Shown one piece after another: positions 33,700-38,671 of a DNA stretch of 43,789 nucleotides (the stretch's first letter is position 1; every line of letters starts with the position of its first letter). The notes under the pieces are model-generated. The model ran no database searches. It worked only from the letters and a program-made list of their open reading frames with translations, and was not told the DNA's origin. The translations under genes and the position numbers were made by a program. The stretch comes from a virus. Lineage: Duplodnaviria > Heunggongvirae > Uroviricota > Caudoviricetes. The stretch lies in the IMG/VR virus record IMGVR_UViG_2623620497_000008, positions 1-43,789 of that record; one strand, written 5' to 3'.

Positions 33700-34724
33700 T
33701 CGAGCACCCCATAAATCCAGTCAGTGTTGTTCAGGTCGACTTTTGGCTTCCCGGCAACCTGAACCCCTGGCGCGCTGCGCTGCATGGTTAGCTTGTCCCA
33801 CTGCTTGCGCAGCGCATCAGGGCTCAGGATGTTGCGATGCCAGAACGAGTCTTTGCTGGCCCAGTCGTACATGGCGCAGATATCCTGGTGGCTGCGGTTG
33901 TCGATCTGGCGCATCAGTCGAACCGTGTTTGACCAGGCGGTCATGTCAGGGGATTTGCAGGTTGGGTTGATCATCCTGACCCTGGAGAAAATCCACTCGG
34001 CAACGCGGACGTCTTCGGCGTTTCCCCACTTGCTTCCGCTGGGTGTGTAAACCGCAGCATCAGGATGAGCAGACAAAAATTTCTTCAGGCGGGCGTCAGA
34101 GGATTCGCCAGAATTCTCGGACGAAGATCTTTTAATGTTTTTATTCTTGTTATTACCTTCTTGTTCATGTTGTGCGGTTGTTTGTGCGGCTTCATGTGCG
34201 CCATCATGTGCGGGCACCACCTTCAAACCCGCGCCATTGCTGGGCTCGCCATGTGCGGAAGTATGTGCGGCTTCATGTGCGGCTTCATGTGCGGGTAAAT
34301 TGTCTGTTTTTTGAGCATATTCTGCAAAATTTGTGATGGTGATCACTCTACCTTTTTGCTTCTCACCTTCGATAGAAATCATCCCTTCGCGCACAAAAAC
34401 AGCCAGCATTCTCTCCACTGAATCGCGACTAGTAGGATTCCCTTTCCGGTCGCAAAGCTGCAGCCCTAAATCGGCCGCTGTGACCACCAGTTGTCCGGGC
34501 AGCAGTGACCACTCATGACCTTTGAAAGTCGCTTTGAATGGCTGACGAGCAGCATTAAGCAGCAGGTTTTCCCACAGGGTTCTGAGGTACACATCTTTTG
34601 CCCAGGACTGCTTGAGAACGCTCCGGTACAACGGGATGTAGCCAGATTTCTGGTTTTCCATCCGGTTGCTCCTGAATTGCCCCGGCGCGGCGCCGGGAAA
34701 CTTGAGTATTTCTGCGGTGTTCAT
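33696..34724 (-). CDS. O: replication initiator O-like protein containing origin iterons
   Basis: 342 aa; N-terminal DNA-binding-like domain, internal HEAAHEAAH repeat encoded by the iterons; immediately upstream of P. Confidence 0.65.
   Translation of the reverse strand: MNTAEILKFPGAAPGQFRSNRMENQKSGYIPLYRSVLKQSWAKDVYLRTLWENLLLNAARQPFKATFKGHEWSLLPGQLVVTAADLGLQLCDRKGNPTSRDSVERMLAVFVREGMISIEGEKQKGRVITITNFAEYAQKTDNLPAHEAAHEAAHTSAHGEPSNGAGLKVVPAHDGAHEAAQTTAQHEQEGNNKNKNIKRSSSENSGESSDARLKKFLSAHPDAAVYTPSGSKWGNAEDVRVAEWIFSRVRMINPTCKSPDMTAWSNTVRLMRQIDNRSHQDICAMYDWASKDSFWHRNILSPDALRKQWDKLTMQRSAPGVQVAGKPKVDLNNTDWIYGVLE
34171..34294. repeat. candidate replication origin: two arrays of four 12-bp iterons (ATGTGCGG core) 45 bp apart, flanked by an AT-rich tract (34127-34170)
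   Basis: TGTGCG(G/C) at 34171, 34183, 34195, 34207 and 34252, 34264, 34276, 34288 with exact 12-bp periodicity. Confidence 0.6.
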
Positions 34725-35518
34725 GCTTCACTCTCCCAGCCGGCCTCTTTCAGGAATTCGCGATAGTTATCCAGGATGGCGCGCGCATCAGCTGGCAGTT
34801 CAATGTCAGCCTGATCAGCGACTATCTGGAGAAACTGGCGCGCCTTTGCTGCGCTAAACTGCGGCAGCGCCGCGCTGCGGGTTAATTTCGATTTACCTGA
34901 CGCTCTGGCCTTATCCATCTGGCGAACAGCTACAGAGGCCGCCTGTGGGCCGTGCTCGCGGGATAAAGCAACCGCGGTTGTCGGGGATACTTCGCCAGCA
35001 CGAACCATGCTGATCAGCTCTTCTCCGCAGGTCAGCAAATGCAGGTGATAGTCGACGTCGGACAGAGAACGCTTAACCTTCTTCGCGATCTCGTCCGGCT
35101 CCCACCCCTGATTTCTCAAACGCTGATATGCAGCTGCGCGTTCCAGAGCAGTGAGAGGCTTTCCCTGGTTCCGGGTAACCATAAAGGCGATCCGGTCAGC
35201 TTCGTTCCCGACGAAGTCTTTGCACTCAAGACGGATGATGTCAGCACCTGCTTTCGTCGCTTCAATGGCGCCGTAATAGCGGTGGTGGCCGTCGATAACC
35301 TTCACGCCCTTCTCGGTAACCTGGACGTCCAGCGGCGGCACCGATTCGCCAGCGATAAACGCATCGCGGAATTCTGCGACGTGATCCTGGTCGATTTCGC
35401 GGATATTCAGGCCGGGCTCGACGTACAGCTCTGACAAAGGAACCGTGTAAGTTTTGTTAACCACCGTTCCGGTTCCGTTTTTGTCTTTGTGCTTGTAAAG
35501 CTGGTAAAGTGAACTCAT
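34721..35518 (-). CDS. ParB-like nuclease domain protein
   Basis: 265 aa; VIDGHHRYYGA motif typical of the ParB/Srx fold; AGGAG SD. Confidence 0.55.
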   Translation of the reverse strand: MSSLYQLYKHKDKNGTGTVVNKTYTVPLSELYVEPGLNIREIDQDHVAEFRDAFIAGESVPPLDVQVTEKGVKVIDGHHRYYGAIEATKAGADIIRLECKDFVGNEADRIAFMVTRNQGKPLTALERAAAYQRLRNQGWEPDEIAKKVKRSLSDVDYHLHLLTCGEELISMVRAGEVSPTTAVALSREHGPQAASVAVRQMDKARASGKSKLTRSAALPQFSAAKARQFLQIVADQADIELPADARAILDNYREFLKEAGWESEA

Positions 35519-36136: not shown

Positions 36137-36182
36137 GGTAAATATACAAATTGTGACTCGAAGAAAGATATACAACTTGTAT
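36109..36182. promoter_or_regulatory. OR operator region: three repressor-binding sites with ATACA-N3-TGTAT symmetry (centres about 36117, 36150, 36176)
   Basis: ATATACATATTGTAT, ATACAAATTGTGA, ATACAACTTGTAT between cro and cI. Confidence 0.55.
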
Positions 36183-36191
36183 CATTTGGGT

Positions 36192-36851
36192 ATGAGCATG
36201 AAATGGTATGACCTAGCAAAGTCCCTCATGAAAACGAAGGGCATAAACCAGGAAGAGCTGGCAGAGCATCTCGGGATCACCAAAGGTGCCGTTAGTCATT
36301 GGCTAAACGCAAGGAGAGAGCCCAGCCTGGAGGACATAGCTAAAATTCTTCGCTTCCTCGGCAAGAATAATTTTTCTGTGGGTGCTGGCGGCATGATAAT
36401 TGATGAAAACATCAAGGGTGATGTTGAGTACGTTGGGCCCTATAAGCGCGGCAACGAATATCCAGTGCTTAGTAGTGTTCAGGCTGGATCGTGGCGAGAG
36501 GCTATAGAACCTTATTCCATCAAAGATGTTGATCTGTGGCTTGAGTCGAATGCACATATCCAAGGGGAAGCGTTCTGGCTGCTTGTTGAAGGCGATTCCA
36601 TGACGTCACCAGTCGGGCTAAGCATTCCAGAGGGTACCTACGTTTTGTTTGATACCGGCCGAGAGCCAGTAAATGGCAGCCTTGTGATCGCAAAGCTATC
36701 CGAATCAAACGAAGCGACATTCAAAAAGCTGATTATTGATGGGGGCCAAAAGTACCTGAAGGGCTTAAACCCTCAATGGCCATTGGTTCCCATCAACGGA
36801 AACTGTCGAATCATTGGTGTGGCCGTAGAAACTAAGTTAAGGCTTGTGTGA
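36192..36851 (+). CDS. cI: CI-like repressor (N-terminal HTH, C-terminal S24 LexA-like autopeptidase domain)
   Basis: HTH (QEELAEHLGITKGAVSHWLN), Ala-Gly cleavage site, GDSM serine and downstream Lys; ATG 36192 likely leaderless (track ORF begins at GTG 36153). Confidence 0.8.
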   Translation: MSMKWYDLAKSLMKTKGINQEELAEHLGITKGAVSHWLNARREPSLEDIAKILRFLGKNNFSVGAGGMIIDENIKGDVEYVGPYKRGNEYPVLSSVQAGSWREAIEPYSIKDVDLWLESNAHIQGEAFWLLVEGDSMTSPVGLSIPEGTYVLFDTGREPVNGSLVIAKLSESNEATFKKLIIDGGQKYLKGLNPQWPLVPINGNCRIIGVAVETKLRLV

Positions 36852-36861
36852 TCGGCAGCAT

Positions 36862-36888
36862 GCCGCAGACGTACAGGAAGCATGGGTA
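36862..36888 (+). repeat. 27-bp direct repeat copy 1 (GCCGCAGACGTACAGGAAGCATGGGTA), contains SD-like AGGAAG plus ATG
   Basis: 26/27 identity with copy at 37065-37091. Confidence 0.5.
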
Positions 36889-36911
36889 AAGCTTTAGCAC
36901 GCAGAGGAAGC

Positions 36912-37031
36912 ATGTCTGATCTGATTATCCCAATACTCATTACTTTACTGATTATCGGACTGGTTGGGATAGTGCTCAGGCTGGATAAGATTTTCTTCAA
37001 GCGAAGGGATGAGCGGGATGACTTTGAGTGA
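36912..37031 (+). CDS. small hydrophobic peptide (39 aa; 49 aa if started at ATG 36882)
   Basis: MSDLIIPILITLLIIGLVGIVLRLDKIFFKRRDERDDFE; AGGAAGC SD; flanked by the 27-bp repeats. Confidence 0.35.
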   Translation: MSDLIIPILITLLIIGLVGIVLRLDKIFFKRRDERDDFE

Positions 37032-37064
37032 GCCAGACCGGTAGTTCGATGTGTTTTTGGTAAT

Positions 37065-37091
37065 GCCGAAGACGTACAGGAAGCATGGGTA
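37065..37091 (+). repeat. 27-bp direct repeat copy 2 (GCCGAAGACGTACAGGAAGCATGGGTA)
   Basis: See copy 1. Confidence 0.5.
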
Positions 37092-37250
37092 GCCATCAGC
37101 CTATCGAAGCGATTAAGTAATTTTTATGACCACTATCTTTCAAAGGTTGATGCTTAGTGTATGATGAGTTTAAAGCCGTATATGCTTAATTACGTGTCAA
37201 CATATTTTTGTAAGATCCGGTCAGATTGTTCCTTTTTTGAGCAACTCTAG

Positions 37251-37279
37251 TTGAAAACCTCTTTGAGGGATCCTATATA
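37251..37279 (+). promoter_or_regulatory. sigma70-like promoter: -35 TTGAAA, 17-bp spacer, -10 TATATA, upstream of the acidic two-gene cassette
   Basis: Good hexamers, but the -10 abuts the AAGGAG SD, so the TSS/start codon relationship is unresolved. Confidence 0.35.
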
Positions 37280-37292
37280 AGGAGTATAGTTA

Positions 37293-37658
37293 GTGACCCG
37301 AAACCCTGGAGATGAATCCGTTGAAGTTTTGCATAAAAGAGCAGTAGCGCGGTTTAACTCTCTTACTTATGCAATCATCGGTGAAATCAGTTCTATGCTC
37401 AGCAAGGCCAAATTATTGCCAATTCCTGAGCTACAGTTGAACAACCCTACATTCGAAGAGGTTGTTTCACAGTTAAGACTTTATCGCGCCCTATCCGAAA
37501 AAGTCGCTGAGTTGTTAAAAATTGATAGGAAAGATGAACTAGCTGAGCTTGACGCGTACATCGAGCTCGCAGATGACTTGGCTCAAGCCATTGTAGCTGA
37601 CAATCCTGAAGGGTTGTGCGCCGCCATAGCTGCTTTGGATGAGAAGCCATACGTATAA
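37293..37658 (+). CDS. acidic helical hypothetical protein (121 aa), rex-position cassette gene A
   Basis: GTG start with AAGGAG 8 nt upstream. Confidence 0.5.
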   Translation: MTRNPGDESVEVLHKRAVARFNSLTYAIIGEISSMLSKAKLLPIPELQLNNPTFEEVVSQLRLYRALSEKVAELLKIDRKDELAELDAYIELADDLAQAIVADNPEGLCAAIAALDEKPYV

Positions 37659-37675
37659 CAAACGAGGAGCACACG

Positions 37676-37804
37676 ATGGAAAACCGTTACGACTTTGAGA
37701 CCGTATTCGCACTGCTGAACGAAATGGAAGCATGCCTGAATAACGTTCGCCGACTGAATGCCCAGTTGGATGAAAGTCTGCGAGCTATTCCACTGGCAGC
37801 TTAA
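37676..37804 (+). CDS. small acidic helical protein (42 aa), cassette gene B
   Basis: ATG with GAGGAG 6 nt upstream, 18 nt after the gene A stop. Confidence 0.45.
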   Translation: MENRYDFETVFALLNEMEACLNNVRRLNAQLDESLRAIPLAA

Positions 37805-37835
37805 CATATCAGCAGCTATTAGAAATTCATCCAGA

Positions 37836-37863
37836 CCCGGCGCGGCCCCCGCGCCGGGTTTTT
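37836..37863 (+). terminator. strong rho-independent terminator (10-bp GC stem CCCGGCGCGG / CCGCGCCGGG, 3-nt loop, T5)
   Basis: Perfect inverted repeat 31 nt after the gene B stop. Confidence 0.65.
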
Positions 37864-38023
37864 ACTGCCTTCCGATCCATATCGGACAGCACCCGACCAC
37901 CAACACAAGCAATTGATTATTTAGAAAATATCTACTTTTTATCTTCATTTGCCCACTATTTGAACATCGCCCCGATCCCCATGGTTAACGGCATCACTGC
38001 TGGCTAGCTGTTGACTACCGGCC

Positions 38024-38227
38024 CTACTCTTCCCTCAGCATCAGCACGTCCAGTGCCAGCTCCACAGTCAGTTCTACCCTGTTTCCCTGCCACAGCACCT
38101 GAATCATCTCTATCAGCGCCTCTCTTAATGGCTCGCGCTTCTCAACCAGCAGTTGCATAACCGCTATCCCGATAACCTGCGCTATCTGTGGGTGCATCTC
38201 TGCGAAAAACTCATCCTCATTCGACAT
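38024..38227 (-). CDS. acidic hypothetical protein (67 aa) transcribed divergently from the OL/pL region
   Basis: ATG 38225-38227 with AGAGGG SD. Confidence 0.45.
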   Translation of the reverse strand: MSNEDEFFAEMHPQIAQVIGIAVMQLLVEKREPLREALIEMIQVLWQGNRVELTVELALDVLMLREE

Positions 38228-38293
38228 GGCGCTACCCTCTTTGGCGTTTTTTTGAGCTTACCAGCACGCTTTACAAAAATAAACCTCCATAGA

Positions 38294-38365
38294 ATACAAA
38301 ATGTTATCTTGAGAAGCAAAAATAAGTATACGTATTGTATTGCAAGTAATGAATACGTTTTGTAT
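38294..38365. promoter_or_regulatory. OL operator region: three sites ATACA-N3-TGTTA, ATACG-N3-TGTAT, ATACG-N3-TGTAT (centres about 38300, 38334, 38359)
   Basis: Same half-site consensus and similar spacing (34 and 25 bp) as OR. Confidence 0.55.
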
Positions 38366-38368
38366 ATT
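38340..38368 (+). promoter_or_regulatory. pL-like promoter: -35 TTGCAA, 17-bp spacer, -10 TATATT, overlapped by operator sites
   Basis: Consensus-like hexamers directing transcription toward gam-bet-exo-xis-int. Confidence 0.55.
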
Positions 38369-38447
38369 CACCTCACCCAAACAACACCGGCAACGCCGGG
38401 GTGAAGTCAAAACGTCCCGTTAGCCGCGATAAGGCAAAGGTGAAGAG

Positions 38448-38564
38448 ATGATCCGCGAAGAAGATAAAACTGAGTGGTTTAAGTTTCTGGCACACGCATT
38501 CGCCATCGTCGTATGCGTACTGATAGCAAGCGCGTTCTGCCTGATGCCTGGTGGTTCAGCATGA
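38448..38564 (+). CDS. small membrane peptide (38 aa), first ORF downstream of pL
   Basis: AGGTGA SD; MIREEDKTEWFKFLAHAFAIVVCVLIASAFCLMPGGSA. Confidence 0.35.
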   Translation: MIREEDKTEWFKFLAHAFAIVVCVLIASAFCLMPGGSA

Positions 38565-38671
38565 GCAGAAATGGCATTCGTTCACTGATTTACTGCCTGC
38601 TGATCTGCGGCGTTATCTGGACAGCGTTGATTATCAAAATTCTGCACGTTACGGGGGTGTTCAATGGTTAG
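38561..38671 (+). CDS. small membrane peptide (36 aa)
   Basis: ATGA overlap with the previous ORF. Confidence 0.3.
   Translation: MSRNGIRSLIYCLLICGVIWTALIIKILHVTGVFNG

Follow-up and report, generated by a model that had tools for sequence, protein, structure and literature searches.

The region downstream of cI

We analysed a pair of direct repeats, and the small gene that lies between them, immediately downstream of the repressor gene cI in a prophage sequence of 43,789 nt (the window, by which we mean the whole stretch of DNA that was analysed). The locus is part of the immunity region, which is delimited by PR and by a PL-like promoter with the same hexamers and spacing (Table 1). Three operator-like repeats separate cI from a divergently oriented cro-like gene. 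OR contains three ATATACAnnTTGT repeats, of which the OL region holds diverged versions only. The coordinates of cI were transferred from the RefSeq annotation of L001, an E. coli prophage locus that is 99.8% identical to the window. Its C-terminus in the window belongs to a different allele from that of most relatives discussed below, ending in ...CRIIGVAVETKLRLV*, and the TGA stop codon (36849–36851) is formed by the GTGATC of a repeat relic that is read out of frame. This C-terminal allele recurs in L055, where it is joined to a different junction. Within the PR operon, the ParB/RepB/Spo0J-family gene, placed by annotation transferred from L001 between cII and the replication genes, is an unusual early-right passenger.

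Downstream of the second repeat, two cargo open reading frames (ORFs) of 121 and 42 aa sit where rexAB or bstA would be. Both belong to PHROG families classed as of unknown function, and neither had a match in PADLOC, NCBIfam or Pfam. They are followed by a hairpin that looks like a terminator and is the probable end of a cI–peptide–cargo transcript; it was missing from the output of a consensus terminator scan. The 67-aa gene at the right border, for which no Pfam match was found, occupies this position in all annotated relatives and lies between the cargo terminator and OL/PL, transcribed towards cI.

Table 1. Features in and around the cI-proximal slot of the window
Feature	Position	Strand	Basis
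ParB/RepB/Spo0J-family gene	34721–35518	−	annotation transferred from L001
PR	36136–36108	−	promoter scan
cI-type repressor (LexA family; HTH_3 + Peptidase_S24)	36192–36851	+	Pfam matches; RefSeq CDS of the 99.8% identical L001
Antisense ORF, 107 aa	36773–37096	−	
Copy 1, apparent relic, GTGATCGGCAGC + 29-mer, 41 nt, non-coding	36848–36888	+	homology in relatives begins at 36848
Peptide leader, 23 nt, with SD-like AGGAAGC at 36905–36911	36889–36911	+	
Peptide A gene, 39-aa single-pass membrane peptide MSDLIIPILITLLIIGLVGIVLRLDKIFFKRRDERDDFE	36912–37031	+	codon-position variation, homologs
Cassette 3′ flank, 31 nt	37032–37062	+	always together with copy 2
Copy 2, apparent 29-nt duplicate of the last nine cI codons + TA, non-coding, cargo junction	37063–37091	+	
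Promoter-like site TTGAGG-16-TATAGT, directly upstream of the 121-aa cargo ORF	37263–37290	+	
Cargo ORFs, 121 aa (37293–37658) and 42 aa (37676–37804)	37293–37804	+	phrog_13858, phrog_12503
Terminator-like hairpin, 11-bp perfect GC-rich stem, 3-nt loop, then TTTT	37835–37865	+	inverted repeat I5
67-aa gene, right border of the variable cI-proximal hotspot	38024–38227	−	phrog_3946
PL-like promoter TTGCAA-17-TATATT	38340–38368	+	promoter scan, OL sequence

The motif ATGCCG[C/A]AGACGTACAGGAAGCATGGGTA forms a 29-nt direct repeat, with copy 1 (ATGCCGCAGACGTACAGGAAGCATGGGTA) at 36860–36888 and copy 2 (ATGCCGAAGACGTACAGGAAGCATGGGTA) starting 203 bp further downstream. The copies agree at 28 of 29 positions, copy 2 having AAG for CAG at repeat position 7, and their longest perfect tract within this genome is 22 nt. 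When up to three mismatches were allowed, just these two matches to the 29-mer were found across the 43.8-kb window, and none of 100 shuffled sequences yielded two. The 10-mer AGGAAGCATG inside the repeat occurs three times in the whole window against an expectation of 0.16, and its third occurrence (36905–36914) gives the ATG (36912) of the 39-aa ORF. A chance origin of the pair was ruled out by the shuffles together with the rarity of the 10-mer. These results bear out most of what the first-pass annotation had described, namely two repeats 203 bp apart flanking a small hydrophobic peptide gene downstream of cI, with a third AGGAAGCATG beginning the ORF: the gene does lie between the copies, the gene upstream is of the HTH_3 + Peptidase_S24 type, and the third 10-mer does supply the start codon. 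The repeat length needs correction, from 27 to 29 nt.

Origin of the repeat

Judged by its sequence, each repeat is a copy of the last nine codons of cI (encoding MPQTYRKHG) and the start of the stop codon. The source is the commonest cI allele family among Klebsiella and E. coli lambdoid prophages, which ends in ...GKVIGSMPQTYRKHG*. Three surveys bear on this assignment. In the first, 137 loci were seeded with the 18-mer core of the motif and are biased by that seed; in 100 of them a long cI ORF ended in the motif, in frame (...DEMNRVFVFGKVIGSMPQTYRKHG*), and in 35, the window included, it was short, out of frame or past the stop codon of another allele. The second survey comprised 80 loci fetched via the conserved 67-aa gene without reference to the motif, of which 71 were full-length. 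Here, 67 of the 71 loci had the motif at the cI end, in the orientation of cI; three more encoded this protein tail despite additional synonymous changes, and in the remaining one (L181) the junction cuts through the motif core. In the third, we used a protein pattern further upstream, and not the motif, to locate cI 3′ ends, and all 56 genes found in this way ended in ...GKVIGSMPQTYRKHG*. The annotated records agree: in twelve annotated relatives the 29-mer was always found at the end of cI, followed by variable genes, with one 29-mer where the peptide gene was missing and two where it was present between them, and several Klebsiella phage records have a cI CDS annotated as stopping at a TAA right after the motif. 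In relatives, the repeat thus closes an HTH + S24 gene in frame, whereas in the window it is a relic.

Variation within the motif also follows the cI frame. The variants are synonymous (CCG/A/T/C, GGG/T/A/C, TAC/TAT, AGG/AGA and AAG/AAA), and the third-position diversity, given as the mean of per-codon values, was ∼0.14 for the last nine cI codons and ∼0.16 for the preceding 33, so that this test found no excess nucleotide-level (synonymous) constraint on the coding copies. Since the motif is in frame, varies synonymously and shows no such excess, we consider it an ordinary coding tail rather than a conserved nucleotide signal. The same synonymous pattern had led us to consider MPQTYRKHG as a leader or arrest peptide encoded by a micro-ORF, an idea that was dropped, as the frame is that of the cI C-terminus. 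The earlier view of the motif as a repeated translation-initiation element did not hold either. The SD-like AGGAAG and the ATG noted in each repeat are present as letters, but AGG-AAG-CAT-GGG are the cI codons for R-K-H-G. What the internal ATG opens is never a cargo gene, but either an ORF of just 3–26 codons or an in-frame extension that the peptide can dispense with, and in 8 of 33 distinct cI alleles the ATG is destroyed by a CAT to CAC change.

In the window, copy 1 is out of frame with cI and identical to the consensus over its entire 41 nt (41/41). It appears to be a non-coding relic, 9 nt past the cI stop codon, because another cI C-terminal allele was joined upstream. Copy 2 can be aligned with cI 3′ ends over 29 nt exactly; a longer homology interrupted by an internal deletion gained no support from the alignment. 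Homology among relatives ends at ∼37092–37098, past copy 2. The cI tail may be present a third time, in degenerate form, in the 23-nt peptide leader, which aligns to it as AGCA---CGCAG------AGGAAGCATG with two gaps, a score reached by 5 of 5000 shuffles.

Relic copies are not confined to the window. They follow no fewer than five unrelated cI ends, with 41, 29, 24, 23 and 20 nt retained and differing left junctions, although these examples were ascertained with the 18-mer itself and are therefore biased. In addition, the trailing copy of a cassette encoding a YoaK-like peptide (type B, see below) has a perfect 24-nt core next to a diverged 5′ part. This persistence could reflect some selection on the core, but repeated conversion by recombination explains it equally well. 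A selected core would make the repeat a cis element on the PRM transcript, ahead of whatever follows cI, acting for example in ribosome loading, in translational coupling or as a site for a protein or sRNA such as a CsrA-type GGA. The AGGAAG and ATG within the motif, and the small ORFs with overlapping stops and starts that often come next, would suit such a role. It is harder to reconcile with the lack of excess synonymous conservation in the coding copies, with the loss of the ATG in 8 of the 33 alleles and its failure to start any cargo gene, and with the three loci that recode the motif extensively and the junction of L181 inside the core. Moreover, copy 2 is no better conserved than the adjacent non-coding flank, and no RNA structure was found (see below). 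We consider a cis-acting role improbable.

The 39-aa peptide and its slot

The product of the gene between the repeats, peptide A, has one hydrophobic helix (residues 4–22, mean Kyte–Doolittle value 3.14) followed by a tail with six K/R and six D/E residues, in keeping with the tiny transmembrane (TM) peptide with a charged tail originally described. To compare loci, we used an architecture key in which T stands for the cI-tail motif and A–D for peptide families. Among 29 distinct T-A-T units, the variable sites of the peptide A gene at codon positions 1, 2 and 3 numbered 5, 2 and 16 of 39, and over 30 distinct coding sequences the TM segment was near-invariant, with three single conservative substitutions, while the charged tail varied. 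Going by this codon pattern, peptide A is a genuine gene under purifying selection. A 10-codon N-terminal extension from the motif ATG at 36882 is dispensable and not conserved, and we therefore take the product to be 39 aa long. The antisense ORF that had been called a shadow does exist, and because the variation among relatives falls on third positions of the plus-strand frame, that description appears apt.

Homologs of peptide A were found in Klebsiella and E. coli only, where they are called at 39 aa and all annotated as hypothetical. An exhaustive homolog search returned nothing below 74% identity; two long repetitive proteins considered as remote homologs look like hydrophobic low-complexity matches and were set aside. 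Peptide A matched no Pfam, PHROG, NCBIfam or PADLOC family, and relaxing the Pfam search to E ≤ 1 gave chance matches only (Endomucin, DUF3377). In all 19 distinct genomic places examined, the gene was directly behind an S24-type cI. In the window, 60 nt separate the gene from cI on the same strand; no promoter-like site was predicted between the two and no terminator for the peptide gene itself, which lysogens most likely transcribe together with cI from PRM. Peptide A may function as a lysogen-expressed inner-membrane accessory protein, for example in superinfection exclusion.

At least four unrelated types of single-helix peptide, of 23–39 aa, are encoded in this slot among relatives, sometimes in tandem. 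Besides peptide A, which is present in the window and in relatives, these are peptide B (32 aa; YoaK family NF033821, 62.8 bits against a cutoff of 32), peptide C (30 aa; MKESSRFALIVIALLLCVLFVVQAIVLLVK) and peptide D (23 aa; MREYLIVGVVTLLSVVAIVLMVA), which occur in relatives and not in the window. Examples are T-B-T in L180 and L182, T-C-B-T in L190 and L210, T-D-B-A-T in L216 and T-A-T-B in L143 and L187. The presence of a YoaK-family protein in the slot recalls small enterobacterial inner-membrane proteins, such as those of the YoaK family, and phage-encoded small exclusion proteins of the membrane, but peptide A itself matches no described family.

Relatives such as L155, L183, L150 and L163 also have a second junction sequence, ...GCCAGC(A/C)AGTGGCCTGATGAGGTGTTTGGGTGATGAG..., which follows either the cI tail or the peptide A stop codon. 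Peptide D starts within this sequence, which also has a strong SD (GAGGTG) and series of stop codons that overlap start codons (TGATG). A hammerhead-like word within it, CUGAUGAG, had no Rfam match at the gathering score. Elsewhere, the cargo beside peptide A includes RexA/RexB, BstA_C proteins (PF26567), KilA-N + BstA_C proteins and a 351-aa CbiA/AAA_31 ParA-like ATPase (loci with such cargo are L005, L229, L230/L235 and L217–L225), and the slot is therefore a hotspot for defence and accessory genes.

The first-pass annotation had found the layout reminiscent of type I toxin–antitoxin loci. Under such an arrangement, peptide A would be a membrane toxin, its translation being limited by an antisense RNA complementary to the repeated SD/ATG elements. 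The outline of the peptide does resemble that of many type I toxins, being short, with one TM helix that contains Pro and Gly and a charged tail; its size (<60 aa) and hydrophobicity fit those of such toxins, and three AGGAAGCATG copies lie close together. With Hok/Sok, Ldr/Rdl, Fst/RNAII and TisB/IstR, peptide A shares a small hydrophobic product with a charged tail encoded on a mobile element. Unlike these systems, its locus has no antisense RNA gene, structured leader or toxin-family membership, and the gene appears to be co-transcribed with the repressor. The promoter scan of the minus strand from 36137 to 38600 returned no sigma-70-like site besides PR, and an antisense RNA gene with its own promoter and terminator was not found in this purely computational search. 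Nor was a long structured mRNA leader with its own promoter, the leader being the 23 nt directly behind cI. No Rfam family matched, even at E ≤ 10, and the predicted folds of 36840–37130 were unremarkable when compared with shuffled sequences (z = +0.89 for the sense and +0.28 for the antisense strand). Variable third positions in codons 1–12 of the peptide gene (5/12, versus 20/27 in the rest) pointed to no significant synonymous constraint (p = 0.07). Searches of Pfam, NCBIfam and PADLOC gave no match to Hok/Gef, Ldr, Fst, TisB, Ibs, ShoB or any other toxin family. In addition, two of the three supposed elements are cI codons, a toxin gene in the cI operon, 60 nt behind cI, would be constitutive in lysogens, and the YoaK-family protein found among the slot-mates carries no toxin annotation. 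A type I toxin–antitoxin system is extremely unlikely here.

Presence, absence and re-assortment of the cassette

The peptide gene with its leader and 3′ flank (the cassette) is present in some relatives and absent from others. In its cI allele and its cargo, L147 matches the window, from which it differs by the absence of exactly 203 bp, corresponding to one repeat plus the cassette. L149 has the same cargo and the same empty site, but an in-frame cI allele. The comparison of relatives for presence or absence of the sequence between the repeats, which the first-pass annotation had proposed as a check, hence gave a clean 203-bp gap in both loci, and its other suggestion, a duplicated insertion scar, was essentially right: the terminal codons of cI bound a 203-bp unit that relatives carry or lack.

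Of the 71 full-length loci in the second, motif-independent survey, 23 had T only, 26 had T-A-T (including T-A-T-B, T-A-T-T and T-D-B-A-T) and eight had T-A with no trailing T. The other peptides were found as T-B-T, T-C-B-T and T-B (two loci each) and as T-D (four loci). All T-A-T units contain the 31-nt flank in a fixed 203-bp register, and from this constancy we conclude that they had a single origin. In loci without the trailing motif, homology stops at the stop codon of the peptide, and the flank is missing where this codon forms the junction. The cassette was paired with three clusters of cI 3′ ends and 21 clusters of cargo in 28 combinations, and nine cargo types were seen both with and without it.

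Two positions within the repeat made it possible to place crossovers. The variant at repeat position 27 segregates with the cargo, and the variant at position 7 (A) with the cassette. Recombinant repeats were nevertheless observed, with C in 14 of 42 trailing copies and A in three single copies; these recombinant combinations at positions 7 and 27 indicate crossovers inside the 29-mer. In BLAST comparisons with phage and E. coli genomes, homology broke at query positions 749, 789 and 993–999, which are the repeat edges.

Taken together, we favour the view, to which we assign a probability of about 0.78, that the locus is a mosaic junction at which a duplicated cI tail marks the boundary and flanks an accessory cassette that was spread by recombination. 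On the evidence of the aligned relatives, a different cI C-terminal allele would have been joined just upstream, leaving copy 1 non-coding. Copy 2 would be the same tail duplicated behind the cassette (23-nt leader, 39-aa gene and 31-nt flank), probably through an illegitimate join or else through something more specific. The 203-bp unit of cassette plus one repeat would have arisen once and then spread. Because the same sequence is present at the cI/cargo junction in every phage of the group, the repeats could act as short homology patches. Recombination at these patches, which we infer to be homologous and driven by the host RecA or a phage Bet/RecT-type recombinase, would insert or delete the cassette or re-assort it against the cI alleles on its left and the accessory or defence cargo on its right. 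The prophage does encode Bet and Gam, according to the annotation transferred from L001. The minimal efficient pairing segment is 23–27 bp for Red-beta and 31–34 bp for RecA (PMC3945230). Identical stretches span 29–41 nt when phages are compared, and 22 nt when copy 1 is compared with copy 2 in this genome. The latter tract is just under the Red-beta minimum, which may make intramolecular deletion inefficient.

Exact direct repeats at the ends of an insert, together with empty sites, are also what a miniature mobile element would leave, and we weighed whether the cassette inserts site-specifically at the cI 3′ end through a recombinase supplied in trans, the repeats being att-like or target-site duplications. 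Integrases are known to duplicate the 3′ end of their target gene, at tRNA genes and at other gene ends, and the B and C-B cassette types are likewise bounded by copies of the motif. The 174-bp insert, however, holds just the 39-aa ORF and no recombinase, its ends carry no inverted repeats, and the peptide gene was never found away from cI in the 19 distinct places. The duplicated length varies with the cassette type (29 versus ∼40 nt), in eight loci the junction coincides with the stop codon of the peptide and the trailing repeat is missing, and the crossover patterns fit general homologous recombination. A mobile element of this kind is very unlikely.

The mosaic junction that we prefer can be set against what is known of lambdoid phages. 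A model in which short conserved boundary sequences underlie phage mosaicism (modular evolution) has been described together with its rival, purely illegitimate recombination (PMC3233612), and our observations fit the former: the motif is shared between phages with differing flanks, breakpoints fall at its edges and crossovers within it. The same properties, i.e. a sequence common to phages that differ on both sides, coinciding breakpoints and internal crossovers, are those of the linker sequences of lambdoid mosaics. In contrast to linkers that are intergenic signals, the repeat is a cI coding tail that is reused as a relic and duplicated behind a cassette. The cI–N interval is itself a known hotspot of mosaicism that carries rexAB and bstA (PMC8585504). 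Like the morons of this hotspot, the peptide A gene is an extra gene between genes that are adjacent in relatives (L147, L149), directly behind cI and on the same strand. It differs from the known cI–N cargo in encoding only 39 aa, in having no predicted promoter or terminator of its own and in being placed between cI and the larger cargo instead of replacing it.

A more far-reaching interpretation is that the slot behind cI is a recombination-shuffled array of lysogen-expressed micro-membrane proteins, in which the cI tails would allow integrase-free cassette exchange by the phage single-strand-annealing recombinase. The peptides would then be functional in lysogens, for instance in superinfection exclusion or as a partner or effector for the defence cargo, as RexB is for RexA. 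We regard this full scenario as speculative and rather unlikely.

Overall, the locus represents ordinary phage mosaicism and no new kind of system. It offers a natural example of this process at nucleotide resolution, in which a coding tail serves again as a portable patch of homology and for which public genomes show empty sites, filled sites and crossovers within the repeat. The locus further points to a set of uncharacterised tiny membrane proteins, one of them YoaK-like, that are apparently expressed with the repressor and encoded beside known defence cargo.
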